Position numbers and translations under genes: made by a program. This document shows positions 616 through 42,262 of a stretch of 64,000 bases of DNA, in pieces. This stretch comes from an uncultured Methanosarcinales archaeon (GTDB lineage: Archaea; Nanobdellota; Nanobdellia; Woesearchaeales; GW2011-AR15): NCBI GenBank assembly GCA_964552005.1, contig CAZKFC010000001.1, forward strand, positions 109,934-173,933, read 5' to 3'. Every line of letters starts with the position of its first letter. The first letter of the stretch is position 1. The notes beneath the pieces were generated by a model that was not told where the DNA came from, did no database searches, and saw only the letters and a program-made list of their open reading frames with translations.

Positions 616-1751
616 CCAATAATTTCTTTAACAGCGTATATGAATAAGCCAGAACTCCATGCAAAGGGAGATTCTGCTTTATAAAAAAATCTTTTTACTG
701 GTCCGTTTTTGTCATACACTTCATAAACATGTCTGTGCTTAATAATTAATGAAGAAATCTTGTCTAATAATTCAATTGCTTTTTTTTTCATGCCCAATTT
801 ATTTTTTGCTAATGCATTTATACACCCGAGCCATAGCCATGACAATCCGTTATGATAATCTTTCAACCCAAGTAATTTTGTTTGCAATGAAACATAATTA
901 TCAGGATAATTAGGATGAACACATTGCGATGGAATTTCGTTAATATCAAATATATGGGATGCTTCTTCAATATGGCGTGCTTTTTCCTTATCAGCAATAT
1001 CCCATAAAATAGCTAAGATATTGCCGTCTGTGGAAAAATAATTATACCTTTTATTACTATCAATCCAGTCTAAATAATGTTCTCCACTCCAAAATAATTC
1101 ATTAATTTTATTCTTTACTTTTTTGTGCAGATTAAGATAAGTCTTACTTTTGTTTTTATCACCACTTTTTTCATAAACTTTTGAAATACAGTACAAAGCA
1201 TGACAATGACACACGTTTGTGTAGAGAACTTTCCCTTTTTTCTTTATGCTGTCTGCCCAGTTGCAATATTCATTCTCCTCTATAAGCAAATCTTTGTCTT
1301 TGTCATTTAGAAAATTCCACTTCATTACTTTTTCAACTTTTTCAATATTATTTGCTAAGAACTTTTTATCTTTTGTAGCTTTCATATATTCATATAAAGA
1401 AATAATAAAAAGGCTGTTCTGATCAACTGTTTTTTTATGTGATTTATCTGTCTTATACACAGCTTTTCTCTTTCCCAAATTAAATCCATAAAAAGAGAAG
1501 ACAATGCCAAGCGAATTTTTACCTATCCTTAGCGGAATTTGTCCTTCTGCATTTATATTTCTTAAAAATAGTTTAAGGTTCTGCCTTACAATATCATAAT
1601 CTTCCTTTACTAAACTACCGTAGCTAGCAAAAAACGAGTCACGCGCCCAATAATCTTTGAAATGATGCAGACCAGCAAAAATGCCTTCTTTAGAGTAACA
1701 CGCTCTTAAATTATCAGAGGCAATTTTTAATGCCTGATTAATATTATTCAT
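612..1751 (-). CDS. (alpha/alpha)6-barrel glycoside hydrolase, amylo-alpha-1,6-glucosidase/GDE_C-like. The likely true start is the internal Met of MNNINQALK.
   Basis: The GLHHFKDYWARDS motif and overall similarity to glycogen-debranching/GH63-like six-hairpin glycosidases; the N-terminal 66 aa of the listed ORF are Cys/Phe-rich junk, so the start was trimmed. Confidence 0.5.
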   Translation of the reverse strand: MNNINQALKIASDNLRACYSKEGIFAGLHHFKDYWARDSFFASYGSLVKEDYDIVRQNLKLFLRNINAEGQIPLRIGKNSLGIVFSFYGFNLGKRKAVYKTDKSHKKTVDQNSLFIISLYEYMKATKDKKFLANNIEKVEKVMKWNFLNDKDKDLLIEENEYCNWADSIKKKGKVLYTNVCHCHALYCISKVYEKSGDKNKSKTYLNLHKKVKNKINELFWSGEHYLDWIDSNKRYNYFSTDGNILAILWDIADKEKARHIEEASHIFDINEIPSQCVHPNYPDNYVSLQTKLLGLKDYHNGLSWLWLGCINALAKNKLGMKKKAIELLDKISSLIIKHRHVYEVYDKNGPVKRFFYKAESPFAWSSGLFIYAVKEIIG

Positions 1752-1839
1752 AAATATACTTTTATTATAAGCATTTTTATATTTTTGCACAAAATTTTTA
1801 AATATATCAATTCTATATACTTGTATAGGGGGTTTTAAC

Positions 1840-2103
1840 TTGGATTTTGATAAATTAATGGAATACCAGAACTTACTGCAGCAAAGATTAAGAAAGGAGC
1901 AGCAGGTTGATAAGAAAATTGAATTACTTACTATAATAAACCACCTTACCATGGGGCCAAAAAATATTGTCCAGAAAGAACAGATAATGATAGAGGCTGT
2001 TTCTCGAGGGTTTTCTGAGAGTGAAGTTGATAAATTACTTGATCAGTTAATAAAAGAAAACATAATTTATGAATCTTCTCCAGGTTACATCAAAAAAAGA
2101 TGA
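1840..2103 (+). CDS. Small hypothetical protein, possibly winged-helix-like
   Basis: 87-aa ORF only; no motif. Confidence 0.25.
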   Translation: MDFDKLMEYQNLLQQRLRKEQQVDKKIELLTIINHLTMGPKNIVQKEQIMIEAVSRGFSESEVDKLLDQLIKENIIYESSPGYIKKR

Positions 2104-2165
2104 AATCTTTTTTTGGGCTTTAAAAATTAATAAAATTTTTAAAATATTAAAAAAAGGTGATTATT

Positions 2166-2879
2166 ATGACAGAAGCATTATACATGGATGATTCTTATTT
2201 AAAAGAGTTTGAAGCAATAGTAAAAACAGTTAGTAATGGTAAATACATTGTTTTAGATAAAACTGCTTTTTTTCCTAAAGGCGGCGGTGTTGAATGGGAT
2301 ACAGGTGTTATGGTACGCAAGAAAGATAATAAAGAATTTAAAGTTATCTATGCAGGTAAATTTAAGGGAGAGATTAGCCACGAAGTTGATCAAGAAGGCT
2401 TAAAAGAAGGTGATGATGTCCATTGTAAAATTGATTGGAACAGGCGCTATAAATTAATGAGGTATCATACAGCTACACATGTTTTTACCGGTATTTTATT
2501 TAAAGACTATAATCTTAAGGTTACAGGCAACCAATTGACAACAGAGAAAGGCAGGGTTGATTTAAATATGGAAACCATGGACGTTAGTTTATTAAAAGAG
2601 GCTATTGAAAAATCTAATGACATAATAAAAAAAGACTTGCCTGTTGAGATTTATTATGTGAGCAGGAAAGAAGCAGAAAAGCATCCTGACCTGTTTAAAT
2701 TGGCCATAGGATTTCCACATGATATTGATAAAATTAGGATTGTTGATATAAAAGGATTTGATAAACAGGCAGACGGGGGCTGCCATGTTAAATCATTAAA
2801 AGAAATTGGTAAATTAGTGTTTAAGGAAGCTGTTAATAAAGGCAAGCAGAATAGGAGGGTTTATTTTACAGTTGAATAA
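2166..2879 (+). CDS. alaX: AlaX-type alanyl-tRNA editing protein (tRNA synthetase class II second additional domain)
   Basis: The HTATHV ... GGCHV zinc-binding motifs typical of AlaRS/ThrRS editing domains; an ATG start with GGTGA 7 nt upstream (the listed ORF starts at an upstream GTG). Confidence 0.75.
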   Translation: MTEALYMDDSYLKEFEAIVKTVSNGKYIVLDKTAFFPKGGGVEWDTGVMVRKKDNKEFKVIYAGKFKGEISHEVDQEGLKEGDDVHCKIDWNRRYKLMRYHTATHVFTGILFKDYNLKVTGNQLTTEKGRVDLNMETMDVSLLKEAIEKSNDIIKKDLPVEIYYVSRKEAEKHPDLFKLAIGFPHDIDKIRIVDIKGFDKQADGGCHVKSLKEIGKLVFKEAVNKGKQNRRVYFTVE

Positions 2880-2926
2880 TTTTTTTTGAACCAATATCTT
2901 TAAAAACGTTTGTTTCTCAAGTAGAT

Positions 2927-3586
2927 ATGATGAAAAAAATTGAGGTTTATGTTAAAGAAGCCTTAAAGAAAGGATATTCTTCTGATCAAATAGAATCAAA
3001 GCTAATTGAATCAGGATATCCTGTGAAAACTGCTAAATCTCTTGTTAATAAATATATTAAAAAACCAATTAGTTTTAAACATCTAATTTTTATTTTGGCT
3101 CCAATAGTTCTTATCATTATAATTTCCGCTCTTTTATTTAAGCAAACAGAGATAGAATCTAATACACAAACCGATGAAATAATAAGTCCAGGACTATATC
3201 TAATTGATAAGGATAGGTATGTTGTGGTTTATCCAGAATCTTGTCTGGTTGAAGAATCTCTTAACAGAATTAATTGTCTTTCTGAAGAAAATAATGTGAA
3301 TTTATCAGAATATTCTTTTTGTGGATTATATGTTGGGAAACATGTTTATGAAAATATGAATCTTGATTCAGGCATGATTGTAGGGGATATAATAACTGCT
3401 GCAAATGAATTAAAAATGAATGAGGAGCTAGATTTTTGGGATTTTTTATCTACAAAACAACCAGGGGATAAAGTCATGCTTACAATAAAAGATAAGGGAG
3501 ATATTGAGATAGAAATATATAAGTCATTATCTTCACAAAAGAATACAATTGGATATTCACTTTCTAGTCTTTTGTGCAAGGAATAA
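2927..3586 (+). CDS. Membrane-anchored protein with a C-terminal PDZ-like domain
   Basis: N-terminal TM; C-terminal GMIVGDIITAANE...GDKVMLTIKDKGDIEIE resembles a PDZ fold. Confidence 0.4.
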   Translation: MMKKIEVYVKEALKKGYSSDQIESKLIESGYPVKTAKSLVNKYIKKPISFKHLIFILAPIVLIIIISALLFKQTEIESNTQTDEIISPGLYLIDKDRYVVVYPESCLVEESLNRINCLSEENNVNLSEYSFCGLYVGKHVYENMNLDSGMIVGDIITAANELKMNEELDFWDFLSTKQPGDKVMLTIKDKGDIEIEIYKSLSSQKNTIGYSLSSLLCKE

Positions 3587-3589
3587 TTT

Positions 3590-4215
3590 ATTATTAGCGA
3601 GCGAGTTTTAGCTCGCTAAGGGGTTTAAAACCCCGCACTTTAGTGCGAGTTCTAGAAAGTTTTTATAGCGGCTTCGCCGCAGTATATATTGCGGACGAAG
3701 TCACGCTGTATAACAACATAGATAGCGTGAGCTTTGCTCCGTGGAGGAGCAAAAATGCAAATAAGCACAACATTGAGACGATACAGCCACAAAGTTGGTT
3801 TAAATTTTTGGCACTTTGAATGGTGTACAAAGTACCGCTATAATATGATGAAGCGAACGGAGATTAAAAATCTTGTGCAAGCAAGCATATTGAAAAGTGC
3901 AAAAGAGCATAATATAAAGATTCACATAATTAAGGTACTGCCTGAACATGTTCATCTTTTGGCAAGCCTGCCAAAAGGAATGCTTGATTCACAAGCATTA
4001 AGATTATTGAAAGGTAGGTCTGCTTATCTGATTTTTAGGAACAGAAAAAACATGAGATTAAGATATCCACGAGGAAATTTCTGGGTAGCAGGAGCATTTT
4101 CTGTAACAGTTGGATATAATGACTTAGACTCAATGGCAAATTACATAGAAAATCAAGAACTTCATCATGGGTTAGCCAGCACTTAGCTGGAAACCCCACA
4201 CTTTTGTGTGGGGAG
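3590..4215 (+). mobile_element. IS200/IS605-family insertion sequence carrying TnpA only (no TnpB). It is bounded by GC-rich subterminal hairpins.
   Basis: Y1 HUH transposase ORF flanked by stacked imperfect palindromes: 3597-3730 (agcgagcgagttttagctcgct; ggggtttaaaacccc; gcggcttcgccgc; ggagcaaa/gctcc) and 4170-4215 (ccagcacttagctgg; ccccacacttttgtgtgggg). Local GC content is clearly higher than in the surrounding AT-rich DNA. Confidence 0.75.
3755..4186 (+). CDS. tnpA: IS200/IS605 family Y1 (HUH) transposase TnpA
   Basis: The HVHLL HUH motif and a conserved Tyr near the C-terminus (NYIENQ); length about 143 aa; GGAGGAG RBS 5 nt upstream of the ATG. Confidence 0.85.
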   Translation: MQISTTLRRYSHKVGLNFWHFEWCTKYRYNMMKRTEIKNLVQASILKSAKEHNIKIHIIKVLPEHVHLLASLPKGMLDSQALRLLKGRSAYLIFRNRKNMRLRYPRGNFWVAGAFSVTVGYNDLDSMANYIENQELHHGLAST

Positions 4216-4219
4216 GATG

Positions 4220-4495
4220 TCATATTTTTATTAATTTTAGTTTTTTGAGTTTCATAATAAAATTAATTAAATCTTTATGGACTATGCTATCCTCAATTTC
4301 AAATTGTTGGCTAAGTTTTTTTTTAATTTTATTTAATGAGGTTTTTCCATCTATTAAATTCCAAATTAGTGAACCCAGAGAATTCAGCTGATAAAATGTC
4401 TGATTTTTAGTGTTATATATTAATACTTCTGTATCAGCATATTCATACACCACATCCTCTATAATAACAGGAACAATACTTGTTTTGGAATTCAT
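4220..4495 (-). CDS. PqqD-family RiPP recognition element (RRE) protein
   Basis: 91 aa; the pattern VLIYNTKNQTFYQLNSLGSLIWNLIDGKTSL...DLINFIMKL matches the PqqD/RRE consensus (YxLNxxGxxIWxLxDG). Confidence 0.7.
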   Translation of the reverse strand: MNSKTSIVPVIIEDVVYEYADTEVLIYNTKNQTFYQLNSLGSLIWNLIDGKTSLNKIKKKLSQQFEIEDSIVHKDLINFIMKLKKLKLIKI

Positions 4496-5511
4496 GTTTT
4501 ACATTTCTTTTTAAATCTTAGTAACAAACTTAGTTTATATAAATTATACAATTTTAAGTGAATTGGACACATTCTTATTTGAGTAATAAATCTTTGATTT
4601 TTATTAGGATAATACTTATTAAAAATATAATTTATATTAATAAACTTAAGTGCATTTTTGATTCTTTTTTTACTGTTTTTCTCTAAATTTGAAAAAACAA
4701 AATCTGGAATATTGGTATTAAAATATTTTTTCATAAAACTAAGACCTAATAATACAACATCATTTGTCCCGTACTTAATTGATTTTTGTATTAGTTTTCT
4801 CCAATTAATTTTCTTTTTTTTAATTATTAATTTTATGTCAATAAAATTACGGAGATAATAACTAACTTGTTGGTAAAACAGTGAAGATAATGAAATAATA
4901 ATCATATCTTCAAAACATGGCACACAATATGATTTACTAAGCTTTTTATTATTTAGTATGTCTTCTGTTTTGATAGTAAAAGGATTGCCCTTTTCCAAAA
5001 CATCCCAATGCACTTCTACTAACACTTTACCATATTTTGTTTTTTTTGAAAAGGGCAAATGATGAGAATAATTTTTCCAGTAATTTGAGTGGATGTCATG
5101 TAACTTTTCTTCACAGTATCCTTCTTTTCGTAGTATCTTTTTAATAAGTACTAAATTCTTTTTTTTAATCAATAGATCAATGTCCCGAAGTACTCTTAAA
5201 TTTATTGGAGTATAAATCGTATTTAGAAGACTTACTCCCTTTATGAAAACATAATTGATTTTGTTTGTTTTTAAGTGATGAGCAATTTTTTTTGATTCTC
5301 TTAAAAGAAGTATATTAATCTGCAGATTTTTTATTGCCTCTTTTTTAAATTTTGTTTTAACTTCACTATCAGTAATTTTTTCTCCAAGAAGACCGTATAT
5401 GTATGATCCTATCATATTGTTTGATGAAAACACTATTAATTCTTGCCAATTAATTTTATCTTTAATTCTTTTAGGTGAATTTATTATATTCAGAACTGTT
5501 TGATAATTCAT
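4492..5511 (-). CDS. Uncharacterised nucleotidyltransferase (NTP_transf_5/PF14907-like), the type found in lasso-peptide and other RiPP clusters
   Basis: Size and motifs (IKGVSLLNTIY...RVLRDIDLL); 4-nt overlap with the PqqD-like gene. Confidence 0.55.
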   Translation of the reverse strand: MNYQTVLNIINSPKRIKDKINWQELIVFSSNNMIGSYIYGLLGEKITDSEVKTKFKKEAIKNLQINILLLRESKKIAHHLKTNKINYVFIKGVSLLNTIYTPINLRVLRDIDLLIKKKNLVLIKKILRKEGYCEEKLHDIHSNYWKNYSHHLPFSKKTKYGKVLVEVHWDVLEKGNPFTIKTEDILNNKKLSKSYCVPCFEDMIIISLSSLFYQQVSYYLRNFIDIKLIIKKKKINWRKLIQKSIKYGTNDVVLLGLSFMKKYFNTNIPDFVFSNLEKNSKKRIKNALKFININYIFNKYYPNKNQRFITQIRMCPIHLKLYNLYKLSLLLRFKKKCKT

Positions 5512-5551
5512 ATTACAAAAGATTGATAGTTAAAATAAATAGCTTTTGGTA

Positions 5552-6397
5552 TTAGATTATTTTTTTCAATATGTTCTCTTTATAAGGAAAATGTAGTTCA
5601 TAACAAGATATGTGATTACAAAAATCAATAGCTTTTTTAATGGCAAATTTTTGTAATTGAGTTTTATTTTTGAAATGAACAGACATTGATACAAACTCAT
5701 TTTGGAGTAGCATTGGAACACTTTCTGTAAATCCCAATCTTTTTTTGGATAATTTTGTAGATTGTTTAATAAAAAAAATCTTTGATATTTTACTTTTTTT
5801 GATATCTGGTCGTACAGACCCACCGAAAGGTGTGGCAAAAGAGTAGTAGATATTGTTAATCTTTCTTATAGCAATAAATTCATCACCCTGTGTGGTAAAT
5901 CCGGTTTTTTTGGCAAATTCTGCTAAAGTTGTTTTTCCACTTCCAGGAAGACCAGAAAAGAGGTTAGACTTTTTATTATATATTATTGATGAACTATGAA
6001 GTAAAAAACCATCTTTTTGAAGTAGAAATATTGCATAAGCAGATCTTACTATATTTCTAATTATGAGAGGAAATTTCCCATATTTTGCAGGAAGCTTGTA
6101 TTCATAATCAGAACCCAGTTTTCCATTGAACAAAGTTGACTCTAATAAATATATATTTTGATTTTCAATAATCTTAATTTTATTATAAACCACTTCATTT
6201 TTCTTTTCATTTAGTACAATATTATTCACATTTTTGTTGTTATTTTTTAATACAATATTTAAATCTGCAGTTCTGCTTTTTACATTATATTCTTTAAAAA
6301 TATCTATACAATCTTCGGACACAGAAGACGGCAAATTTAATTTAATAATGTGATTAAATATAGCAAAGTAAAACTCTTTTGTCATATTAGAATCCAA
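5552..6397 (-). CDS. HPr-kinase/phosphorylase-like P-loop serine kinase, of the RiPP-associated kinase type
   Basis: Walker A motif SGLPGSGKTTLAEF followed by GDEFIAI, comparable to the HprK C-terminal domain (GxSGxGKS...ADD). Confidence 0.6.
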   Translation of the reverse strand: MDSNMTKEFYFAIFNHIIKLNLPSSVSEDCIDIFKEYNVKSRTADLNIVLKNNNKNVNNIVLNEKKNEVVYNKIKIIENQNIYLLESTLFNGKLGSDYEYKLPAKYGKFPLIIRNIVRSAYAIFLLQKDGFLLHSSSIIYNKKSNLFSGLPGSGKTTLAEFAKKTGFTTQGDEFIAIRKINNIYYSFATPFGGSVRPDIKKSKISKIFFIKQSTKLSKKRLGFTESVPMLLQNEFVSMSVHFKNKTQLQKFAIKKAIDFCNHISCYELHFPYKENILKKII

Positions 6398-6420
6398 GAA
6401 TGTAACTACAATCTTAAATA

Positions 6421-6498
6421 TTATGTTGTTCTTGCATCTAAAATTTCAATTTTATCTAATTTTTTTATTTTAGGGGCCATATATTTATTTTTTTTCAT
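6421..6498 (-). CDS. Candidate 25-aa precursor/leader-type peptide MKKNKYMAPKIKKLDKIEILDARTT. It was found by hand and is below the ORF-track size cut-off.
   Basis: ATG ORF lying in the 145-nt gap between the adenylating enzyme and kinase genes, on the same strand. A TATA-like tttataaag sits about 27-34 nt upstream. The peptide has a C-terminal Thr-Thr. Confidence 0.2.
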   Translation of the reverse strand: MKKNKYMAPKIKKLDKIEILDARTT

Positions 6499-6542
6499 GA
6501 ATCATACATAATCATAATTACTTTATAAATGTTTTTTTAAAT

Positions 6543-7832
6543 CTATTTTTTGACTTTGGAAATAATTGATCGTTTTTTGTAATCTGTTTTTTTTGGTACT
6601 CCAGAGGTAATATTTATTTTTATTTCAAGGGCAGGTCCAAAAAAAGACATTAGTGCTTTTTTTGCTTTTTCGAGTTTAATCTTGGATTTGTTATTGAATT
6701 TTTGGGATTTTATTATGTTTATTAGTATCTTATCTTTTTTTTCCTGAATTATTTCAAATTGTTTAATCCCATTTAAAGATCTTAGGTGCCAAGATGGGAT
6801 TCTGTTTGGAGATATTTTTCTGTTATTTGGTAAAATAAATATATCATCTTTTCTTCCTGTTAATTGCTTTAATAATGGCCAAGTTCTACCACAGTAACAT
6901 CTTTTGCTAATAGGTATGCCTAAATCTCCCAAATCATATCTAATCAAAGGCATTGCATAATTATAAAGATTTGTTATAACTATGTGTCCTTCTTTGTTGG
7001 ACTCAATTTCATTTCCTTCAGAATCAAGAAACTCCACAATACAACCATCCGTGATTATGTGGAGACCATTGTGTTTTTCACATTCAAAAGCAATTCTTGA
7101 TACTTCAGCGGCCCCATAGATATTAAATATCTTATTACCAAAAAATTTTGTTAATTTTCTTCTTTCAATTAAAGTAATTACCTCACCATGAAGAGAGATT
7201 GTTCTTGGCTTTTTGATTTTTATATTATTTTCTTGTAGATAAGTAATAAATTCAATAAGAAATGAAGGAGAACTTGCAATATGTTTTGGTGATATTTTTA
7301 TATATTCTCTAACAACATCTTCTAATGTATCTGAGATATCAAGGTCATACCTTTTAAAAATTCCAAATTTAGATAACAATGACTTTTTTGTATTTGGTTC
7401 AGGGATATGAAATCTTATAGTTTTATCTAGTAGAGATCTTCCCTGTTCTAATGCCACATATAGAATTAAAGCGTTATTATAATCAATTTCTTTTTTTGTA
7501 GTGAGGATTTTTAATGGTTTGCCTGTAGAACCCGAAGTAAAAATTATTTCATGTTTTTTTCTTAATTTTTTTTTTGAAATTATAGATTCATAATTTTCTT
7601 GAATATCTTCTTTTTTTGTAATTGGAATTTTTTTTAAATCGTTTTTTGTTCTTATATCTCTTGGGGATATGTTGTTATCGTTAAAGAGCTTTCTGTAATA
7701 AGGAACATTATTATAAGAATAGTGAATTAAATTTTTTAATTTCTCATTTTGAATTTTTTCCAACTTTTCAAGATTAAATCTTTGATGTAGCTTTAGTTTT
7801 AGTAAATAGTAGAGAGTTTTTATAATTGCCAT
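6543..7832 (-). CDS. Adenylate-forming enzyme of the phenylacetate-CoA ligase / coenzyme F390 synthetase / CapK family
   Basis: The FTSGSTGKP AMP-binding motif, the N-terminal YYRKLF region and the C-terminal YDLGD region are typical of COG1541. Confidence 0.7.
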   Translation of the reverse strand: MAIIKTLYYLLKLKLHQRFNLEKLEKIQNEKLKNLIHYSYNNVPYYRKLFNDNNISPRDIRTKNDLKKIPITKKEDIQENYESIISKKKLRKKHEIIFTSGSTGKPLKILTTKKEIDYNNALILYVALEQGRSLLDKTIRFHIPEPNTKKSLLSKFGIFKRYDLDISDTLEDVVREYIKISPKHIASSPSFLIEFITYLQENNIKIKKPRTISLHGEVITLIERRKLTKFFGNKIFNIYGAAEVSRIAFECEKHNGLHIITDGCIVEFLDSEGNEIESNKEGHIVITNLYNYAMPLIRYDLGDLGIPISKRCYCGRTWPLLKQLTGRKDDIFILPNNRKISPNRIPSWHLRSLNGIKQFEIIQEKKDKILINIIKSQKFNNKSKIKLEKAKKALMSFFGPALEIKINITSGVPKKTDYKKRSIISKVKK

Positions 7833-7893
7833 ATCACCTTTTTATCTATATTATTAAAAAAATATTTAAGAATATATAAAATCATCTAGATTA

Positions 7894-9453
7894 ATGAAAA
7901 CTATTCTTATCTGTTTTGACGATGTAGGTTCGATCTCTGTTAGGTTATTGCATGCTTTCTTAGATAAAAAGGAACACGATGTTACCTCTGTTTTTCTAAT
8001 TGATGTTTCAAAACCAATTGATTATAATTTTTTTGTTAAAACAATCAAGAATTATAATCCAGGTTTAGTTGCTATTCAGGTTTTATCTAATTATGTTAAG
8101 CTTTCTGAAAAAATTACCAAAAAGATAAAAAAAAATATTGGGTGTCACGTGCTGTGGGGAGGTCCACATCCAACCATAAATCCACACACTAGCTTGAAAT
8201 ATGCAGATTTTATTTGTGTTGGTGAAGCTGAATATGCTATTAGTGAACTAATCACCTTAATGCAACAAAATAAACCAATTTATACTATCAAAAATATTGG
8301 TTATAAAAAAAATAATAAGAAATACATAAACCCTTTGCGACCCTTGATACAAGATTTAGATAGGTTGCCTTTTCCAGATTTTTCCGATAAAAAGAAAGTC
8401 TATATCTACAAAAATAAGATTTTTAAGACCCCACCAATAGATAGCTTGGAATACTACTATAAGTTCAATTATCCAATTATCACTTCAAGAGGATGCCCCT
8501 ATAATTGTACTTATTGTGGTAGTTATAATTTGAAGAAAATATATGGGAAAACATATCATGTGAGAAGAAGGGGCGTTAAAAATGTGATTGAAGAACTTAA
8601 ACTTGCCAAAAAGATGTTTCCTTCTATTGTAAAAGTGGCTTTTGTTGATGATGTTTTTACCTTAGATATTAAGTGGCTTAAGAAGTTTTGTAAAGAATAT
8701 AAGCATAATATAAATTTGCCATTTTATTGTCATCTACATACTAAAATGGCTGATGAGGAAAAATTAAAATTAATTAAAGAAGCTAATTGTGTAAATGTAG
8801 GTTTAGGAATCCAATCAGGCTCCGAAAAAATACGAAAAGAAATATTTCACAGATTTGAATCAAATAAAGAAATATTCCAAGTTTCAGATTCTTTAAAAAA
8901 TAAAAAAATAAAGGTGGTGTATGACGTTATTGTTGATAATCCTTATGAAGAATTTGAAGAATATATCTCATCTTTAAGTCTTTTTTTTAAACTTAAAAAA
9001 CCCTTTACCATTAGACTATTTAGTTTGGTGTTCTATCCAAATTTTGAGTTAACATTAAAAGCATTAAAAGATAAAAAAATTTCAATAAAAAACGTTGTAG
9101 GATATAGTAATAATGTTGTTTATCATGGTATGCGATCGAAATATTCTAAAAAAAGTATGTTTATCTATAGTTTATATTCTCTTCTTGGTAAATATTACAT
9201 CCCAAATAAATTTATTAAATTTATTTCACAATCAAAGTACTTAAGAAAAAATCCAAAAGGTTTGTTTTGGTTGACAAATATTATTACAACCACACACTAT
9301 ATTTATAGTTTATTTATTGGATTGATATTTAATTTTATTAAATTACCTAAAAGAACCTTATCTATGATACTAAGAATTTTAAGTAACTTTGTAAATCAAA
9401 AAGTATTTCCATTTATTCATTTACCATATATCTATGAAGAAGAAAAACCATAA
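7894..9453 (+). CDS. B12-binding (class B) radical SAM enzyme
   Basis: N-terminal cobalamin-binding Rossmann segment (ILICFDD...) followed by the radical SAM cluster motif CPYNCTYC. Confidence 0.8.
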   Translation: MKTILICFDDVGSISVRLLHAFLDKKEHDVTSVFLIDVSKPIDYNFFVKTIKNYNPGLVAIQVLSNYVKLSEKITKKIKKNIGCHVLWGGPHPTINPHTSLKYADFICVGEAEYAISELITLMQQNKPIYTIKNIGYKKNNKKYINPLRPLIQDLDRLPFPDFSDKKKVYIYKNKIFKTPPIDSLEYYYKFNYPIITSRGCPYNCTYCGSYNLKKIYGKTYHVRRRGVKNVIEELKLAKKMFPSIVKVAFVDDVFTLDIKWLKKFCKEYKHNINLPFYCHLHTKMADEEKLKLIKEANCVNVGLGIQSGSEKIRKEIFHRFESNKEIFQVSDSLKNKKIKVVYDVIVDNPYEEFEEYISSLSLFFKLKKPFTIRLFSLVFYPNFELTLKALKDKKISIKNVVGYSNNVVYHGMRSKYSKKSMFIYSLYSLLGKYYIPNKFIKFISQSKYLRKNPKGLFWLTNIITTTHYIYSLFIGLIFNFIKLPKRTLSMILRILSNFVNQKVFPFIHLPYIYEEEKP

Positions 9454-9790
9454 TACGAAAAATGGAAGACATCAAGAATATGTAATTAGAGGGAGAAGTA
9501 TGTTACCTTTCTATCCACCAGGTAAAAAGGTAAAACTATATTCTACCAAAACCTATGTTGTTGGAGACATTATTGGGTATCTTGATAAGAAACAACTCAT
9601 CGTACACAGAGTTATTGATGTTAAAAAAAGTTATTTAATTACTAAGGGAGATTTTAATTTTTTTATTGATTCAAAAATCAGAACAAATAAAGTTATTGGA
9701 AAGATAAATAATAATAACAAGTTACTTAATTACTTTATTGCAAGAATATCAATGTTATTAGGTAAGATTTATTCTTTGTTTCATAGTTAA
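9434..9790 (+). CDS. Mini S26/S24-fold peptidase with a Ser/His dyad (archaeal/eukaryal Sec11-type signal-peptidase-like)
   Basis: GRSMLPF (Ser motif) ... GD ... LIVHRVIDV (His in place of the bacterial Lys). It overlaps the upstream rSAM gene by 20 nt. Confidence 0.45.
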   Translation: MKKKNHNTKNGRHQEYVIRGRSMLPFYPPGKKVKLYSTKTYVVGDIIGYLDKKQLIVHRVIDVKKSYLITKGDFNFFIDSKIRTNKVIGKINNNNKLLNYFIARISMLLGKIYSLFHS

Positions 9791-9821
9791 ATATTTAAAA
9801 AATTGAGCAATACTCACAACC

Positions 9822-11234
9822 ATGAAAGTACTTCTTATTAGTCCAACCGATTTTAATAACTATAGAAAAGTTCAACCTGGGAGAATTCCTTTAAATTTGC
9901 TTTATATTGCATCTTACTTAAGACAACATCAAGCAAATATTGAATTAAAGGTAATTGATTGTATTGCAGAGAAATTATCATTGGAAAAAACAAATCATAT
10001 TATTAAAAAATATTCTCCGGATCTTGTTGGTATTACGTTAGTAACTGAATTTTATAATTCAGCCATAAATTTAACCAAAAATATTAAACAAATAATACCT
10101 AATTGCAAGATTGTTTTTGGAGGATTACATGCCTCTGCTTTGCCGAAAGAGATTATCAAAAACGATTTTATAGACTTTGTTTTAGCCGGAGAAGCAGAAA
10201 TTGCATTTCATAATTTGTGCGGTTATTTAAATGGAAAACTGAAAATTACCTCTGTACCAGGATTATACTATAAAAAAAAAGGCAAAATTAAGTCTAATAA
10301 AATTAAATTCATCAAAGATTTAGATAGTTTACCCTTTCCAGCCAGAGAGTTAGTAAATCAAAAATTATATTTTACAAAATATTCAAAAAAAACAACATCA
10401 ATAATGGTTAGTAGAGGATGTCCTTATTCTTGTATTTATTGTGCTCATAAACTCGCATTTGGACAGAAAATAAGAAGAAGAAGTATAAAAAATGTCATAG
10501 AAGAGATTAAACACTGCATAGCTAAATATGATATACATTCTTTTGAATTCATAGACTCTCTTTTTATTTCTTCAAATAAATATACAAAAAAACTCTGTGA
10601 ACAAATTATTAAAGATAACTTGAAAATTACTTGGAGATGTCAAACAAGAATAGATTCTTTTATTCCCAATAAAAATAATATGAAAAAAGACATCATTCAA
10701 TTGATAAAATTAATGAAAAGATCGGGTTGTCAGAGAATTTATTTTGGTATTGATTCAGGCAACGAAGAAATATTAAGAATAAATAAGAAATCACAGAAAT
10801 TAAATGAAATTAAGGAAGTAATTGATTTAATTAACAAACAGGGTATAAAAACACAAGCCACTTTTGTTTTGGGGTTATTGGGAGAAAATAAAAAAACAAT
10901 TCAAGATACTTTTGATTTTGCTAATACTTTAAATCTTGACGACATTTATTATACAAGAGCCTATGCATATCCAGGAACAGAATTTTATGATAAATTAGCA
11001 GATGCAAAAAAAATAAAGAAGAAATATTGGATAAAAGGACAAGATATTATTTACTATGATAACTTTACTAGTAAGGATTTGGATAAGATTATTAAATCTC
11101 GGTTACTAAAATCCAAATTAAGTCCAGTTTACTTAGCTAGACAATTAATTTTATTAATAAAAAATCCTTCTAAGGACAACATACGTTCTTTTCTTTATAG
11201 GACTAAAAAAGTAATAAAAAAAATTATTAGTTAG
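9822..11234 (+). CDS. B12-binding (class B) radical SAM enzyme, a paralog of the 7894-9453 gene
   Basis: N-terminal B12-binding region (MKVLLISPTD...) and the CPYSCIYC motif. Confidence 0.8.
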   Translation: MKVLLISPTDFNNYRKVQPGRIPLNLLYIASYLRQHQANIELKVIDCIAEKLSLEKTNHIIKKYSPDLVGITLVTEFYNSAINLTKNIKQIIPNCKIVFGGLHASALPKEIIKNDFIDFVLAGEAEIAFHNLCGYLNGKLKITSVPGLYYKKKGKIKSNKIKFIKDLDSLPFPARELVNQKLYFTKYSKKTTSIMVSRGCPYSCIYCAHKLAFGQKIRRRSIKNVIEEIKHCIAKYDIHSFEFIDSLFISSNKYTKKLCEQIIKDNLKITWRCQTRIDSFIPNKNNMKKDIIQLIKLMKRSGCQRIYFGIDSGNEEILRINKKSQKLNEIKEVIDLINKQGIKTQATFVLGLLGENKKTIQDTFDFANTLNLDDIYYTRAYAYPGTEFYDKLADAKKIKKKYWIKGQDIIYYDNFTSKDLDKIIKSRLLKSKLSPVYLARQLILLIKNPSKDNIRSFLYRTKKVIKKIIS

Positions 11235-11733: not shown

Positions 11734-11907
11734 AGGGGACGTAGTACAACCTGGCTAGTATAAGCGGCTCCAGTCATGGAGTGATGAGTCTTCGGACAAT
11801 GACTTATCTGTGGTCAGTCACCTGAGGAAGTGACCGCTAGATCGGGGTTCAAATCTATTACGGCCTGTTAGGATGCAGGAACGAATAGTGGTTATCCCTG
11901 CGTCCCC
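11734..11907 (+). tRNA. tRNA-Trp (anticodon CCA) interrupted by two introns. One is a canonical 37/38 intron of about 59 nt, and the other is a non-canonical intron of about 41 nt inserted after the T-loop.
   Basis: Hand folding: acceptor GGGGACG/CGTCCCC; D-stem GTAC/GTAT; anticodon stem AGCGG (11762-66) pairs with CCGCT (11833-37); loop CT-CCA-G; T-stem CGGGG (11842-46), T-loop TTCAAAT, with the 3' T-stem CCCTG displaced to 11895-99. Confidence 0.55.
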
Positions 11908-11934
11908 ACTCTTTCCAAATGAAAATAAAATTGA

Positions 11935-12250
11935 GATGATGAAAACTCATGAAAATATCCTCATAATTAGTATAATTCTTTTATCAAGTGTTATAACATT
12001 GGTTGATATAGGAGATGCACCGGTTTATCAAGATGAACACCTTCAAGTTTTACAAGTTAAATCTATTGATGATGTAGGTTATCCAAACAATTTGTATAAA
12101 GGGCAAGAAATAGTAATTAAAACAACAAAAAAGGGAATCATAAAAAACAAGATCCCATATGAAGTTTTCACGGGTTGGTTTCCTGCATATGTACAATATT
12201 TTATCATGAGAATTTTTGGATTTTCTAGAACTTCATTAAGATATCTATAA
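11935..12250 (+). CDS. Hypothetical small membrane protein. The listed ORF (from 11873) starts inside the tRNA, so an internal Met start is assumed.
   Basis: ORF only; one TM segment; doubtful. Confidence 0.2.
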
Positions 12251-12680
12251 AGAGTTTATATTTTAAAAACAAAGAATATATTTGTGTTAAAACAAATAAT
12301 AAAAACACAAATCCTGCAAAAACAGGTGATAAAGTTAAACTTATTGATACTGCTAAGATGAATAAGATTGTTGCTAGAATAATTGCTTCGTGCTTTTTAA
12401 TTTTATCCGAAGCAATAGGTCTTAATTTTTTCTTATGATGTAATTTATTTTTTTTAAAATCAAGAATATCATTGATTACATAATTTGTTGAAGAGATTAA
12501 ACATAAAGCAACAAAACCGAGTAAAGTCTTTTCTAAGACAATTAGATTAAAAATCTGTTTTCCAAATACTATCGGAAGAAAAATAATCAAGTTTTTGTAC
12601 CACTGATATATCCTTATTTCATCCAAAGTATCTTTTATTTTCATATTCTTCTTTAACTTATATTTATTACAAACATACAA
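12225..12680 (-). pseudogene. Truncated UbiA-family prenyltransferase. Only the N-terminal approximately 150 aa with the first Asp-rich motif are present.
   Basis: YQWYKNLIIFLPIVFG ... NDILDF ... KKLRPIASDKI matches the UbiA/DPPR-synthase N-terminal half. Full-length members are about 280-300 aa, and the second Asp-rich motif is absent. Confidence 0.45.
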
Positions 12681-12689
12681 CTTGGTTTT

Positions 12690-13742
12690 CTAAAAAAACC
12701 AACTTACTATTTTTAATACTCCTTGTCTCCAAAGAGTGCTATGTGTAACACCATACTTATTTTCAAATTTATCTAGATTTTTAACATACCATATATACGT
12801 TCTTAGCAATGTGTCTTTATTTGAATACATAGGTTTGAAACCAAGAATTTTCTCAGCTTTTTCAATTGAAACAACAGAATCTTTTACCGCTGTCTCATAA
12901 ATCCATTGGTATAATGGAGACAACTTTAAAAAGTCTAGTATTTTAAGTAAACTAATTACAGGAAATTTAGGTAGTGGGATATTTTTCTTTTTAAATCCTG
13001 CATGATAGACAACATACCCAAAATCTTCGCGCATAGTTAAGAATTCTTTTGCTCCAATATTAAAAGTATCATTCACTTTATCTTCTGCTTTTTTTAGACA
13101 CAGTTCAATGGCAACACACAAATCTTCTACATCTAAAAGTTGATAGTGATTATTCCCGTTTCCAATAAGGGGTATGTTCTTTCCCCTTCTTATCCAATCT
13201 GAATAAATTGCCATTATGCCTAATCTCCCAGGACCCATAAATGTTTTAGGTCTTAGGATTGTAACACACATACCTTTTTTTCTATATTTATCACATATTT
13301 TTTCTGCTTTTATTTTGGCTTTTCCATACGATCCAACACCCTTTAGTTTATGGTGTTCATACAAGGGAGTGGAGTCAGGTATACCATAAACTGCAGTTGA
13401 TGAGATATAGATAAATTTTTTTATTTTTTGCCTATGTGCTACTCTAAGTATGTTTTCAGTTCCCATGATTTCTGTTGAGTAAATATCTCTTGCTGAGTAC
13501 AAGGGTAAAGCAGCAGCAGCATGAACAATGTAGTCGACACCGGTGAATATTCTATTTAGATTTTTTATTTTCCTTATATCACTCCAAACATACTTAGCTT
13601 TGTACTTCATATCATTGTAGTTTAAAGGCATCACAAGATCTATTACTTTGAGTTTATATCCTTTTTTGTAAAGATAGTTTACAAGATTGGTTCCAAGAAA
13701 TCCAGACCCACCAGTTATTAACACAGTTTTCTTCTTTACCAT
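12690..13742 (-). CDS. NAD-dependent sugar epimerase/dehydratase (extended SDR)
   Basis: N-terminal VLITGGSGFLGTNLVNYL Rossmann motif and a YxxxK region. Confidence 0.8.
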   Translation of the reverse strand: MVKKKTVLITGGSGFLGTNLVNYLYKKGYKLKVIDLVMPLNYNDMKYKAKYVWSDIRKIKNLNRIFTGVDYIVHAAAALPLYSARDIYSTEIMGTENILRVAHRQKIKKFIYISSTAVYGIPDSTPLYEHHKLKGVGSYGKAKIKAEKICDKYRKKGMCVTILRPKTFMGPGRLGIMAIYSDWIRRGKNIPLIGNGNNHYQLLDVEDLCVAIELCLKKAEDKVNDTFNIGAKEFLTMREDFGYVVYHAGFKKKNIPLPKFPVISLLKILDFLKLSPLYQWIYETAVKDSVVSIEKAEKILGFKPMYSNKDTLLRTYIWYVKNLDKFENKYGVTHSTLWRQGVLKIVSWFF

Positions 13743-13801
13743 AGGTTTATAATTGTTAATAAATTTATAAATATTTTTAAGAGATAAAAAATTTGTTGTG
13801 A

Positions 13802-15298
13802 TTAGGGTTTGTTTATAGTATATTGTTTAGATCTATTTACAAATTCTAAATCATAAAACTCAAAATTTTTTATTTTTGTTTTGAAAGAGACCTTATATTT
13901 GTTTTTTATTAACAAATTAAAATCATTGCAGTCCGTTGAAAGATTTTCTTTTACTATAAGTAAGCAATATATCTCTCCTTCTTTCAATGTATTATTTAGA
14001 ATATCCTCATATAAATAATCAAATGGTGTTCCACACCCCATATGTAAAGAAAATGCGGTTAAAGGATAATTTTTGTTTGTTAACCAATATAAACCAGGGT
14101 TCCATCCCCAGTAGTAGAAGCTTTCATTTTCGTTTAAATTATTTTTTAGAAAAGAGACAATTGCTTGTTGTTCAGAGTATGATGAAAATTCATGGAATTT
14201 TACTGAGTTTTTAATATTGTGTTCAGGATAATATTTTATTGATGTTAGAAAGGTAAATAACAATAATAAACTTATGAACAGTTTAAGATTTATATTTTGT
14301 TTTATTTTATTAAAAAGATTACTACTAAAAATTACAATTATGGGGAATAATGAAACTAAATAATGACCAAAACTAGGTGTTATTGTTTGATATATTAATG
14401 CAAACATACTCAACAAAAGTGCAATTTTAGATGTAAGATTTAGTTTTTTATATAACTTTAAACCAATTAATATTAATCCAATCATTAAAATGATAGCTTC
14501 AAAATATAAAATTGGAAACCCTTTATTGTGGAAAACTGCAAAATATTTTGAATAAATTAAATAAAAAGATTTTATAGAAACATATGCTAAGTAAATTAAA
14601 TTGATTTTAAATCTAACATAAAAATATCCAAGAGAAACAATGCCAATTGCAAAAGAGATAGATGAATATTGAATTATGTGTTTAATTTTCTTCTTTTGAA
14701 ATAATAATATTAAATTGAATATGCCTATATAGACCATGTTAAGAGAATTGGATAATAAAGCAATCGCCCAAAATAAGGAAGATAGATAAAAATATTTTTT
14801 ATTATCAGATGTAAAATACTTCGTTAAAAAATATAAAGATAATACAAAATATAAATTAAAGAATGTTCCAGGTTTGTTTAGAAAACCTTGTAATAATGGA
14901 ATGTGCATTAAAATTGAATAAATAAATCCTCCAAATAATGCCTCTTTATGGTTCTTTCTAATTTCATATAAATATAGTAGTAGAAAGAACAGAGACAAAA
15001 AGAAAATAAAACAACCATATAATCTAAAAACAAAAAAAGAGTGGTTTTTTAATATTAAAGGTGGAAAATAATTCATATATGAGATTGGTGTTTTTGTGTC
15101 AGCATATGAATAGGGATTTTTTCCTTTTAACCAACTATCAGATAAATAAAGCATAACTCCTTCATCATCTTCTAGAGGAACATTGAACCATAACAATCTA
15201 AGAGATATACTAAATATTAATAAGAAAAAGAACCATTTATTAAAAAATAATTTCTTATAATTTTTGGTCTTTTGTTTCATATGTTTTTCTAAAGGCAT
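13802..15298 (-). CDS. Polytopic GT-C-type glycosyltransferase (ArnT/PMT-like) membrane protein
   Basis: At least 10 predicted TM helices; DDEG acidic motif in the first external loop. Confidence 0.5.
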   Translation of the reverse strand: MPLEKHMKQKTKNYKKLFFNKWFFFLLIFSISLRLLWFNVPLEDDEGVMLYLSDSWLKGKNPYSYADTKTPISYMNYFPPLILKNHSFFVFRLYGCFIFFLSLFFLLLYLYEIRKNHKEALFGGFIYSILMHIPLLQGFLNKPGTFFNLYFVLSLYFLTKYFTSDNKKYFYLSSLFWAIALLSNSLNMVYIGIFNLILLFQKKKIKHIIQYSSISFAIGIVSLGYFYVRFKINLIYLAYVSIKSFYLIYSKYFAVFHNKGFPILYFEAIILMIGLILIGLKLYKKLNLTSKIALLLSMFALIYQTITPSFGHYLVSLFPIIVIFSSNLFNKIKQNINLKLFISLLLLFTFLTSIKYYPEHNIKNSVKFHEFSSYSEQQAIVSFLKNNLNENESFYYWGWNPGLYWLTNKNYPLTAFSLHMGCGTPFDYLYEDILNNTLKEGEIYCLLIVKENLSTDCNDFNLLIKNKYKVSFKTKIKNFEFYDLEFVNRSKQYTINKP

Positions 15299-15704
15299 TG
15301 TCTTGTTTTTAATTTATTCCTTTTGTATGGGTGATATGTTTTATTACTACTTTCTTAAAGAGAATAAATAAACGATATATACTAAAAGCACAAAGTACAT
15401 ATACAATTCCTATTACTGGAGTTAAATATCTCTCTGAACCAATTGATAATAAAAGTAATAAAATTATTAATATTACAGTATATAATAACGTTGTACCTGA
15501 AAGGTTTTTCTCTTTTATTGTTAAAATCCCTCCTACTGTAAAAAATATTAACCTTTAAATTGAAAATAATAAATTTATAGTTTCAGTTTCTGTATCCCTA
15601 AAGTTTAAAATTCTTATAACAAATAACACCATTTAAATTATATAGTCTTTCAGGAGGTCTAAGGTCTATGTTTTTAACTTTAGCTAATTTTAACAAATTC
15701 AACA

Positions 15705-17408: not shown

Positions 17409-17477
17409 TATAAATCTTTTTTGTAATTTCTTATTATCTTTATTTCATATATACTTTTTCTTATATTAACCTTCTTT

Positions 17478-18590: not shown

Positions 18591-18714
18591 AAATAAAAGA
18601 AAAACGGCAATTTATTTAAATTTGCATGCTTTTAATAATTTGAGTTTTATATTTACTATTACTGAACTAATAATATACAAGATTACTACATTGTAATCTT
18701 CTAGAGATTAAAAC

Positions 18715-19410: not shown

Positions 19411-19436
19411 CCAGAAAAAAATAACCACTTAGTCAA

Positions 19437-20195: not shown

Positions 20196-20295
20196 TATTT
20201 TTGACTCATGTTCCTTATTATATTATCTCTTTTTTATCTATATATTATATTAGAAAAACACGAAAATATCTACGTGAAATTACTAGGAGATTATA

Positions 20296-20424
20296 ATGAA
20301 TACATCAACAGCAATAATTATTACACAGGTTCCAATTGCAATCTCAATTTTAGTAGGGTCATATGAGATTTATAAATTAAGAAAAGAATTGATGGGTTTA
20401 CTTGAAAAAATAACAAAAAAATAA
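20296..20424 (+). CDS. 42-aa single-TM micropeptide MNTSTAIIITQVPIAISILVGSYEIYKLRKELMGLLEKITKK
   Basis: Found by hand. It has an AGGAG RBS 7 nt upstream, and its stop sits 1 nt before the start of the next gene. Confidence 0.35.
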   Translation: MNTSTAIIITQVPIAISILVGSYEIYKLRKELMGLLEKITKK

Positions 20425-20425
20425 A

Positions 20426-21724: not shown

Positions 21725-21824
21725 ATGTATATTTTTAGTATGTTATAGGGAAGGGTCCACTTTCTAGGCTATTATCTTAATAAATACCATAAATATTAAA
21801 TAAACGCCAAAGCTATTCTGTGAT

Positions 21825-42246: not shown

Positions 42247-42262
42247 AACATTTCTTTTTTAA

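Follow-up and report, generated by a model that had tools for sequence, protein, structure and literature searches.

Linear polyphosphorylated peptides (LPPs), a kind of peptide that is made on ribosomes and modified after translation (RiPP), were defined in Bacillota and called restricted to them (Popov et al., Nat Commun 2026, published May 2026; PMC13381572). Here we compare the LPP system with an island of seven open reading frames (ORFs) in a 64-kb stretch of DNA from contig CAZKFC010000001.1 (the window, meaning this whole stretch), where a small ORF for a candidate precursor peptide lies among genes for counterparts of LPP proteins. The LPP core itself is already known and the locus is a cross-domain variant of it. 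Judging from sequence comparisons, the island is probably an archaeal member of an extended LPP-type RiPP pathway whose product, made from a 25-aa peptide, would be a very small peptide bearing phosphate and other decorations. An earlier reading of the same DNA (the original prediction) had suggested a new peptide-modification pathway; its core proved to be the published LPP system (PMC13381572), and what is new is the archaeal variant with radical SAM enzymes.

The LPP core set comprises LppS, an archaeal-type, SipW-like protein resembling signal peptidases; LppB, a discrete RiPP recognition element (RRE); LppK, an HprK-like kinase; LppN, a PF14907 protein; and LppD, an MsbA-like exporter, and the cluster that has been studied is lppA-K-B-S-D-N of Paenibacillus alginolyticus (PMC13381572). 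LPP precursors are 35-200 aa long with the consensus YxxPxVLxHQxIxFETxxS, and the YxxPx[V/I/L]-type motif has been experimentally validated as the RRE-binding motif of LPP and lasso leaders (PMC13381572). Experiments showed that LppK polyphosphorylates Ser3 of the core, with no phosphorylation of S3T or S3Y variants, and that LppS, which prefers phosphorylated peptide as its substrate, cleaves after Thr-1 in an RRE-dependent manner; LppN was inactive in the heterologous host, without factors encoded outside the core cluster (PMC13381572). The Bacillota clusters sit in capsule loci, yet they modify a peptide (PMC13381572). A kinase and PF14907 pair is also typical of paeninodin-type lasso peptide clusters, and in pseudomycoidin a hexose is added to phospho-Ser (PMC8498205).

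The island in the window is organized as two divergent operons. On the minus strand lie genes for an adenylate-forming ligase (adenylase), a kinase, a PF14907 protein and a PqqD-type RRE, the last two sharing 4 nt; on the plus strand the peptidase gene sits between the genes of two cobalamin (B12)-binding radical SAM enzymes and overlaps the 3' end of the first by 20 nt. All seven genes stand where the original prediction had placed them, although it overlooked the precursor gene and the gene of a nearby membrane protein. Domains were called in the window ORFs with Pfam and NCBIfam hidden Markov models (HMMs) at curated cutoffs. The features that correspond to LPP components, with the putative promoter of the peptide gene, are as follows.

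6421-6498, minus strand: candidate precursor peptide gene, 25 aa (MKKNKYMAPKIKKLDKIEILDARTT), an ORF between the adenylase and kinase genes
6522-6529, minus strand: TATA-like box TTTATAAA, in the interval from the adenylase stop codon to the peptide gene and 31 nt upstream of that gene's ATG
4220-4495, minus strand: discrete RRE of the PqqD family, counterpart of LppB and lasso B1 (PF05402, 6e-14, above cutoff)
4492-5511, minus strand: NTP_transf_5 nucleotidyltransferase, counterpart of LppN and PsmN (PF14907, 1.6e-32, above cutoff, over the whole model length)
5552-6397, minus strand: P-loop kinase of modelled HprK/PEPCK fold, counterpart of LppK (HMM matches of its relatives and an AlphaFold model)
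9434-9790, plus strand: mini Ser/His peptidase, 118 aa, archaeal-type and signal-peptidase-like (predicted S26/S24 fold), counterpart of LppS (motifs, TIGR02228 and BLASTP)

Archaeal markers in the window include GatD/GatE, RadA, RPA and an ATP-dependent ligase, and the nearest named homologues of GatE belong to Candidatus Woesearchaeota (62-73% identity). The host is therefore an archaeon and Woesearchaeota-like, in agreement with the DPANN host proposed in the original prediction.

Candidate precursor peptides

In a strict motif scan the ORF at 6421-6498 was the sole match in the 64 kb of the window, with Y-M-A-P-K-I-K-K-L as its leader motif. For comparison, archaeal-type loci were fetched via the closest relatives of the kinase (28-36% identity), giving, together with the window, the loci L005, L006, L007, L010, L011, L012 and L013. 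All eight carry a small ORF with the motif Y-x-x-P-x-[ILV]-x-x-[LI], in each case no more than 80 nt from a kinase or PqqD gene, and the encoded precursors are 22-36 aa long. The small ORFs of the seven related loci read:

L005: MKKPYIPPEIQTLKENIVLDARTI
L006: ...LNYTRPTLRKIKRNKVVMTRCT
L007: MQKKKKIAYQAPRITRLKKLKVLNAAC
L010: ...MYHKPKVIHLKQIELLEAATKN
L011: MEKREYKKPKIELIKKTERLYAITGPSY
L012: MKKYSSPKIKKIKEIKILETQS
L013: MKIVYEKPTIKKLKKISKLSSEVNSTTL

Shuffled window sequence contained on average 1.4 short ORFs with a relaxed form of the motif per 64 kb, or about 0.007 per 300 nt, a background that excludes chance as the source of a motif ORF in eight of eight loci. The small ORFs have further properties in common on which the search did not rely: the N-terminus is rich in Lys, and position Tyr+16, counted from the motif tyrosine, holds a small residue. 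Threonine, serine or cysteine stands at Tyr+18 in seven of the eight, and the remaining one (L013) has a serine at Tyr+20. In seven of the eight loci a TTTAWAWA-like box, which is independent of the peptide motif, begins 29-32 nt upstream of the peptide ATG. An archaeal promoter would be expected to have such a geometry, and the box would serve a leaderless or near-leaderless transcript.

Anchoring the sequences on this tyrosine reproduces the published architecture of LppA, with its 27-aa leader, 45-aa core and Ser3 at Tyr+18, and the window peptide falls in the same register. Its predicted leader is MKKNKYMAPKIKKLDKIEILD (residues 1-21), followed, after cleavage behind Asp21, by the core ARTT, whose third residue, Thr24 (Tyr+18), aligns with the phosphorylated Ser3 of LppA. 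All eight small ORFs stop 2-8 residues past the predicted cleavage site. Besides ARTT, the predicted cores are ARTI, TRCT, AAC, AATKN, AITGPSY and TQS, with T, C, C, T, T and S respectively at position 3, and SEVNSTTL. For the precursors of L013 and of two further loci, L020 and L021, the register fits with a leader two residues longer and Ser at Tyr+20. The motif scan gave no convincing precursor in the more distant loci L017, L022, L030, L042 and L015, where it may be divergent or lie outside the stretches read.

Other genes of the island accompany the small ORF. In L006, L007, L010 and L013 the gene set recurs at 23-45% protein identity, with the peptide, kinase, PqqD, PF14907 and mini peptidase genes and at least one radical SAM gene; recurrence at such low identity indicates that the set is not a chance juxtaposition. 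Locus L007 is syntenic with the window, and 53-67% identity is seen there between the flanking genes of the two (for an AlaX-like protein, a glycoside hydrolase, a membrane protein of 125 aa and a protein of 87 aa), so that the island evolves faster than its surroundings. The RiPP reading of the original prediction is thus supported by a co-varying small ORF in every archaeal-type locus, and the conservation of the gene set, which it had proposed to check, extends to the four loci just named.

These patterns bear on the possibility that the genes act on no peptide at all and modify a polysaccharide or lipid, the small ORFs being fortuitous. Glycan genes (PMT_2, GT2, EpsG, Polysacc_synt, deacetylase and FemAB) consistently neighbour the cassette, and archaeal B12-radical SAM enzymes often act on lipids. 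However, the PqqD-type RRE is a peptide-binding domain, and the small ORF is kept in sequence, position, length and promoter across loci against the low background given above. Its motif is, moreover, the validated RRE-binding motif of LPP and lasso leaders, and the Bacillota LPP clusters modify a peptide although they too lie in capsule loci (PMC13381572). We therefore regard a system devoid of a peptide substrate as very improbable.

The very short predicted cores would also be consistent with a peptide that serves as a scaffold for a small molecule or cofactor, following the logic of pyrroloquinoline quinone (PQQ), mycofactocin and pearlin, in which case the 3-8-residue tail on the RRE-bound leader of 21 residues would be rebuilt through phosphorylation, ligation and radical SAM chemistry and then cut off, the product being barely peptidic or not peptidic at all. 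Mycofactocin and PQQ gene sets combine a short peptide, a PqqD-type RRE, a radical SAM enzyme, a peptidase and a glycosyl- or nucleotidyltransferase, and the component list found here resembles them in the short precursor, the RRE, radical SAM chemistry, the dedicated peptidase and, for mycofactocin, the glycosyltransferase. The amide-forming enzymes vary, from CapK-like (window and L005) to ATP-grasp with FemAB (L010) and FemAB (L013), as such a route might allow. Those sets differ in having other classes of radical SAM enzyme, no kinase and conserved precursor tails, whereas the tails here differ from one another in length and sequence, as is usual for RiPP cores; in a precursor of a cofactor, conservation would be expected. 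The locus has no linked oxidoreductase or other partner that would use a cofactor, and the homologous systems with long cores (L020 and LppA) yield peptides. A scaffold role is consequently improbable in our assessment, and an LPP-type peptide product is preferred.

Counterparts of the LPP maturation proteins

The mini Ser/His peptidase of the original prediction is no odd extra but corresponds to LppS, the leader peptidase that depends on the RRE. In BLASTP comparisons with the LppS and LppB sequences of Supplementary Data 1 of PMC13381572, the peptidase matched the experimentally characterised LppS (E = 2e-8, 29% identity over 85 residues) and the PqqD protein matched LppB (E = 2e-10, 24% identity over 70 residues). 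The 118-aa peptidase has no Pfam match and reaches 45.1 bits (9.5e-12) against a cutoff of 51.85 for TIGR02228; its relatives pass Peptidase_S24. Invariant residues are Ser22 (GxSMxP), His58-Arg59 and Lys71-Gly-Asp-x-Asn75, the Ser/His signature of signal peptidases of the archaeal and endoplasmic reticulum type, and these motifs together with homology point to an S26/S24 fold. Unlike housekeeping archaeal signal peptidases, the protein showed no N-terminal transmembrane segment in a Kyte-Doolittle scan. A C-terminal membrane helix had been considered for both the peptidase and radical SAM enzyme 1 and was rejected, as the scan gave no transmembrane segment in either.

Gene fusions in related loci link this type of peptidase to peptide maturation. 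Two independent loci have a fusion of an S24-like peptidase with PF14907 (L010, 3970-5475; L042, 9956-11554), and in two others the peptidase domain forms the N-terminal part of a fusion with an MsbA-like ATP-binding cassette (ABC) exporter (L020, 9944-12157; L021, 4271-6367). L020, a Bacteroidota-like contig with a type IX secretion system sorting domain nearby, has this fusion next to and behind the genes for a 63-aa YSKPLI... precursor (...YSKPLISTIKLDSEISLAMES...), PqqD and the kinase. The peptidase-exporter proteins have the architecture of the peptidase-containing ABC transporters (PCATs) of bacteriocin and RiPP export, with a serine peptidase; PCATs share the N-terminal fusion of peptidase to exporter, but there the peptidase is a C39 Cys enzyme and here an S24/S26 Ser/His enzyme, and the window peptidase stands alone with no exporter nearby. 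Both kinds of fusion provide independent support for the leader-peptidase role that has been published for the signal-peptidase-like enzyme. Scans with the peptidase motifs, based on an alignment of three peptidase sequences, retrieved 30 loci from metagenomes, with an adjacent kinase in 16, PqqD in 8 and PF14907 in 5, and only 2 loci from GTDB genomes, among which the genome of the window itself was not represented.

Among NCBIfam models the PqqD protein is matched best by lasso_PqqD_Bac (2.9e-12, below cutoff). The PF14907 protein displays a KG..S...RDIDLL motif and has homologues in L006, L007, L010 and L013; a sequence search of PDB with it gave no matches, and our literature search returned nothing relevant on PF14907.

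The kinase, which probably starts at the ATG at 6385 (277 aa), was assigned through its relatives. An exhaustive HMMER search found 2437 of them, only 5 below 1e-30, where a word-indexed search found only 2 proteins. Among 36 aligned relatives, HprK_rel_A was matched by 31, ScmC by 27 and HprK_rel_B by 24, and the alignment shows little or no variation in the Walker A motif GLPGSGKTT, His134, Asp172 and TPFGG. The AlphaFold model computed from this alignment has a mean confidence (pLDDT) of 90.4, and in a Foldseek comparison with PDB it retrieved only PEP carboxykinases and HPr kinase/phosphatases (probability 1.00, E from 1e-6 to 1e-4); a PDB sequence search with the kinase profile gave P-loop and PEPCK matches only. 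The modelled fold is accordingly that of HprK/PEPCK P-loop kinases. Of the domain assignments in the original prediction, PqqD, NTP_transf_5 and B12-binding with Radical_SAM are above the cutoffs, whereas the direct HprK matches of the kinase are sub-threshold and the assignment is supported through the relatives and the model.

SynChlorMet (ScmC/D/E/F, TIGR04248-04251) and HPr-rel-A (TIGR04352/04353), two computationally defined NCBIfam systems, share with the island the association of an HprK-related P-loop protein with PqqD, and the Scm system also includes radical SAM enzymes. The window differs from SynChlorMet in that its PqqD protein reaches 27 bits for ScmD against a cutoff of 100, its kinase has no NCBIfam ScmC match and only a 'faint' PF27840 match, and its radical SAM enzymes are of the cobalamin class B where ScmE and ScmF are radical SAM/SPASM proteins. 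By the names of the models TIGR04248-04251, the peptidase and PF14907 have no counterpart there. From HPr-rel-A it differs by scores of 22.2 bits against 200 for the kinase and 14.4 bits against 35 for the PqqD partner. No papers on SynChlorMet were found in the literature search. A bacterial metagenome-assembled genome of high GC content (JBFMFE010000295.1, locus L015) has an HprK-like protein, PqqD, radical SAM-SPASM and S24-like peptidase genes in a row at 7656-10480, which is a SynChlorMet-like cassette plus a signal-peptidase-like enzyme.

The original prediction had connected the trio of PqqD, HprK-like kinase and PF14907 with phosphorylated lasso peptides, and rightly, as the same trio occurs in the paeninodin and pseudomycoidin clusters together with a [Y/W]xxPx[L/I/V] leader motif (PMC8498205). 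It had also remarked on the absence of a lasso cyclase and a B2 protease, and neither was found: no Asn_synthase-type cyclase among the scanned ORFs of the window, and no transglutaminase-type B2 protease among ORFs of at least 87 aa within 1-22 kb of the window, a scan that did not include smaller or overlapping ORFs. The precomputed Pfam lists of L006, L007, L010 and L013 likewise hold no Asn_synthase and no transglutaminase-core protein. A remnant or split lasso cluster, with cyclase and B2 encoded elsewhere, would account for lasso_PqqD_Bac as the best match of the RRE and for the kinase and PF14907 pair typical of paeninodin-type clusters (PMC8498205), but a core of 3-8 residues cannot form a macrolactam ring of 7-9 members with a threaded tail, the four residues of the window core being too few for ring and tail. 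In addition, the phosphosite of phosphorylated lasso peptides is a C-terminal Ser, whereas the hydroxyl residue of the window core is at position 3. We consider a lasso origin of this kind extremely unlikely, and with the cutoffs missed and cyclase and B2 not found, the locus belongs to neither SynChlorMet, HPr-rel-A nor the lasso class. A 370-aa PP-loop ATPase, the only PP-loop protein found, is encoded 6 kb from the island (17478-18590, minus strand; QueC borderline at 22.3 bits against a cutoff of 22, ATP_bind_3 sub-threshold); it was considered as a lasso cyclase and rejected, since by these matches it is QueC/TilS-like and not of the Asn-synthetase type.

Proposed maturation route and departures from LPPs

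The window shares with LPP clusters a discrete PqqD RRE, a kinase of the HprK-like type, an anchorless signal-peptidase-like peptidase, PF14907, the lack of a macrolactam cyclase and a glycan neighbourhood, and its peptide shares the YxxPx[V/I/L] leader, the spacing of the predicted cut between Tyr+15 and Tyr+16 and the hydroxyl residue at core position 3. In terms of the LPP definition, it has a signal-peptidase I-like leader peptidase without B2, a discrete RRE, a kinase that is HprK-like by its modelled fold, and PF14907, and it lacks the exporter. The part of the LPP domain table available to us lists the models that match the window proteins or their relatives, PqqD, NTP_transf_5, TIGR02228 and TIGR04249.

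In the route that we propose, the 25-aa precursor would be transcribed from its own TATA-type promoter and its Y-M-A-P-K-I-K-K-L motif would be bound by the discrete PqqD-type RRE. The RRE would present the peptide to the HprK-fold kinase for phosphorylation of Thr24 (Tyr+18), and to the anchorless Ser/His protease, which would cut after Asp21 (Tyr+15) and free the ARTT tetrapeptide. PF14907 could extend the phosphate, say by a sugar, for which pseudomycoidin is the precedent, and the two cobalamin radical SAM enzymes and the CapK/PaaK ligase could add lineage-specific changes such as C-methylation or capping by an acyl or amide group. The sequences themselves show the gene content, the homologies, the conserved precursor and its register with LppA. 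RRE binding, phosphorylation at position 3 and RRE-dependent cleavage are assigned to the window by analogy with experiments on homologues (PMC13381572), whereas we infer the roles of the radical SAM enzymes, the ligase and PF14907 as well as the identity of the final product. The C-methylation, nucleotidylation and adenylation of the peptide in the original prediction are likewise putative.

Several observations weigh against this reading. The core of LppA has 45 aa, whereas the window core has 4 and those of its relatives 3-8; since the latter lie so far outside the LPP range of 35-200-aa precursors, a molecule of another kind may result. Position 3 is Ser in LppA but Thr in the window and Cys in L006 and L007, and the threonine of the window corresponds to the S3T substitution rejected by Paenibacillus LppK. 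The MsbA-like exporter of LPP clusters has no counterpart in the window or the archaeal-type loci, no ABC_membrane/MsbA-type exporter having been found among the scanned window ORFs or in L006, L007, L010 and L013. The kinase's own HMM matches are far below the family cutoffs (TIGR04352 at 22.2 bits against 200, PEPCK_ATP at 1e-3). The BLAST score of the peptidase against housekeeping archaeal signal peptidases is about the same as against LppS, so that only architecture and context set it apart from them. Finally, PMT_2, GT2 and FemAB genes are interleaved in the related loci; together with the occurrence of an adenylase homologue in a glycan cluster, described below, this suggests that some of the tailoring genes may act on glycans.

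Further differences from the Bacillota systems lie in the host, archaeal here and reported only from Bacillota for LPPs, and in the leader, which keeps YxxPxI and lacks the H-Q, the F-E-T and the Ser of the Bacillota consensus. Additions in the window are the conserved membrane protein of 219 aa, the CapK/PaaK ligase and the pair of B12-radical SAM enzymes, and related loci add PMT_2. In the portion of the Bacillota LPP dataset that we could consult, Radical_SAM is not listed, and AMP-binding and PMT_2 occur in 2 and 1 of 126 loci, respectively.

The archaeal loci therefore extend the LPP system across domains, and relatives are found in Bacteroidota-like and other bacterial contigs as well. 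They pair the LPP machinery with radical SAM enzymes and minimal precursors, and the shortness of the cores should make the mass-spectrometric assignment of each modification much simpler, in a system whose NTP transferase was silent in the heterologous host (PMC13381572). A more specific product can be envisaged, in which an LPP-derived route of DPANN archaea would yield a core of 3-8 residues, phosphorylated at position 3, C-modified by cobalamin radical SAM enzymes, capped by the CapK-type ligase and perhaps linked through its phosphate to a sugar or glycan by PF14907 and co-operonic PMT_2 glycosyltransferases, as a new class of phospho-glycopeptide surface or signalling molecule. This elaboration is speculative and, on balance, doubtful; if true, the archaeon, an episymbiont, would make a phospho-glycopeptide and not a linear phosphopeptide like those of Bacillota. 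Very few archaeal RiPPs have been characterised and, to our knowledge, none from DPANN archaea. A conserved and fast-evolving RiPP locus in the reduced genome of a symbiont suggests a role in interactions with hosts or competitors, or in surface-glycan biology.

Radical SAM enzymes, ligase and glycan surroundings

The remaining features of the island and its edge are:

7894-9453, plus strand: class B (cobalamin-binding) radical SAM enzyme 1 (B12-binding 9e-13, Radical_SAM 3e-18, both above cutoff)
9822-11234, plus strand: class B radical SAM enzyme 2, of the ~470-aa type kept in related loci (B12-binding 4e-17, Radical_SAM 4e-19, both above cutoff)
6543-7832, minus strand: PaaK/CapK-type adenylate-forming ligase (AMP-binding above cutoff; precomputed domain PF27533 CapK_C)
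7833-7893, no strand: divergent intergenic region, 61 nt, AT-rich, separating the two operons and presumably a promoter region
2927-3586, plus strand: single-pass membrane protein, 219 aa, with a weak PDZ-like C-terminal domain (homologues beside the cassette in L006 and L007)

Both radical SAM enzymes show the CxxxCxxC motif and neither has a SPASM domain. All seven long related loci have a radical SAM gene, its class varying from B12-binding in L007, L010 and L013 to MiaB-like in L006, with an extra SPASM enzyme in L013; homologues of enzyme 2 occur in L007, L010, L013 and L030. In locus L030 a PqqD domain is part of the radical SAM-SPASM enzyme itself, by fusion, and a SPASM radical SAM gene directly follows PqqD in L015 and L042. 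The adenylase has the ANL motifs TSGSTGKP, YGAAE, YDLGD and GRKDD, and its PaaK/FlxY/F390-type matches (1e-23 to 1e-45) are below the equivalog cutoffs. Its gene and the peptide gene share a strand, with the adenylase gene upstream, an arrangement that recurs, as a homologous fragment at the same position, only in L005. The original prediction had counted the adenylase as a member of the cluster; as it is confined to the window and its closest relative L005, this did not hold, and the enzyme is better viewed as an accessory, lineage-specific tailoring candidate.

That part of the island might belong to another pathway has to be weighed here. Only the LPP core would then act on the peptide, and the radical SAM enzymes and ligase would be part of a neighbouring glycan or lipid pathway or would make the group attached by PF14907. 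The nearest homologue of the adenylase (38% identity) lies in a glycan cluster with GT4, GT2, epimerase, ABC-2 and exosortase/S-layer genes and without PqqD, and the adenylase is absent from L006, L007, L010 and L013. The B12-radical SAM genes of L007 and L013 are co-directional with deacetylase and PMT_2 genes, which speaks against peptide-directed radical SAM chemistry, and the best NCBIfam matches of the window enzymes are the lipid or tetrapyrrole enzymes HpnJ and BchE, all below cutoff, with enzyme 1 reaching no equivalog cutoff. The requirement of LppN for factors outside the core cluster (PMC13381572) and the glycan locus at 12-22 kb of the window (UbiA fragment, epimerase, two PMT_2, two GT2 and a GH106-like protein) would fit as well. 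On the other hand, a radical SAM gene persists in seven of seven long loci despite rearrangement, the two radical SAM genes of the window enclose the peptidase gene, which shares 20 nt with the first of them, PqqD is fused to the radical SAM-SPASM enzyme of L030, and SPASM enzymes directly follow PqqD in L015 and L042. The constancy of the radical SAM gene, the overlap with the peptidase gene and the L030 fusion argue for radical SAM chemistry directed at the peptide, and we judge a division of the island between two pathways unlikely, in favour of a single LPP-type route.

The 219-aa membrane protein is probably an extra member of the cluster, set apart from the rest by an IS200 insertion. 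It has 23-28% identity to its homologues in L006 and L007 (215-219 aa), a divergence like that of the other island genes, with one strong transmembrane segment (residues 46-76) and a sub-threshold PDZ_2 match (2e-4). An IS200/IS605-type Y1 transposase gene (3734-4186, plus strand; PF01797, 2e-21) lies between the membrane-protein and PqqD genes, and the same arrangement is found on contig L001 from another sample.

A glycan locus adjoins the island at 12690-22688, with genes for an epimerase, two PMT_2 GT-C glycosyltransferases, a GH106-like protein, the PP-loop ATPase, a methyltransferase and two GT2 proteins. The position of the island beside a surface-glycan locus parallels the capsule-locus setting of the Bacillota LPP clusters. 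At the edge of the glycan locus, a UbiA prenyltransferase ORF (12225-12680, minus strand) covers only model positions 20-118 of 250 and abuts a 125-aa unannotated ORF (11873-12250, plus strand); it may be a truncated or disrupted gene. In two related loci (L013, 771-12745; L007, 3068-8431), PMT_2 (GT-C) genes run in the same direction as the peptidase, kinase and B12-radical SAM genes and almost adjoin them. Members of the FemAB family are encoded in L010 and L013; L010 also has an ATP-grasp gene and, at 1728-3476, a fusion of a GT2 glycosyltransferase with an HprK-like kinase.

Farther along the window, the only ABC system found is of the MacB/FtsX type and lies 29 kb from the island (40197-44715, plus strand); it consists of an ATPase (ABC_tran), two permeases (MacB_PCD+FtsX) and a protein of 431 aa that has no annotation. 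A 1178-aa protein encoded at 54880-58416 (minus strand) combines NlpC/P60, SLT transglycosylase and Wzy_C-like domains. As peptidoglycan-cleaving domains in an archaeon free of murein, they suggest that this protein may target bacteria (cf. PMC12352652).

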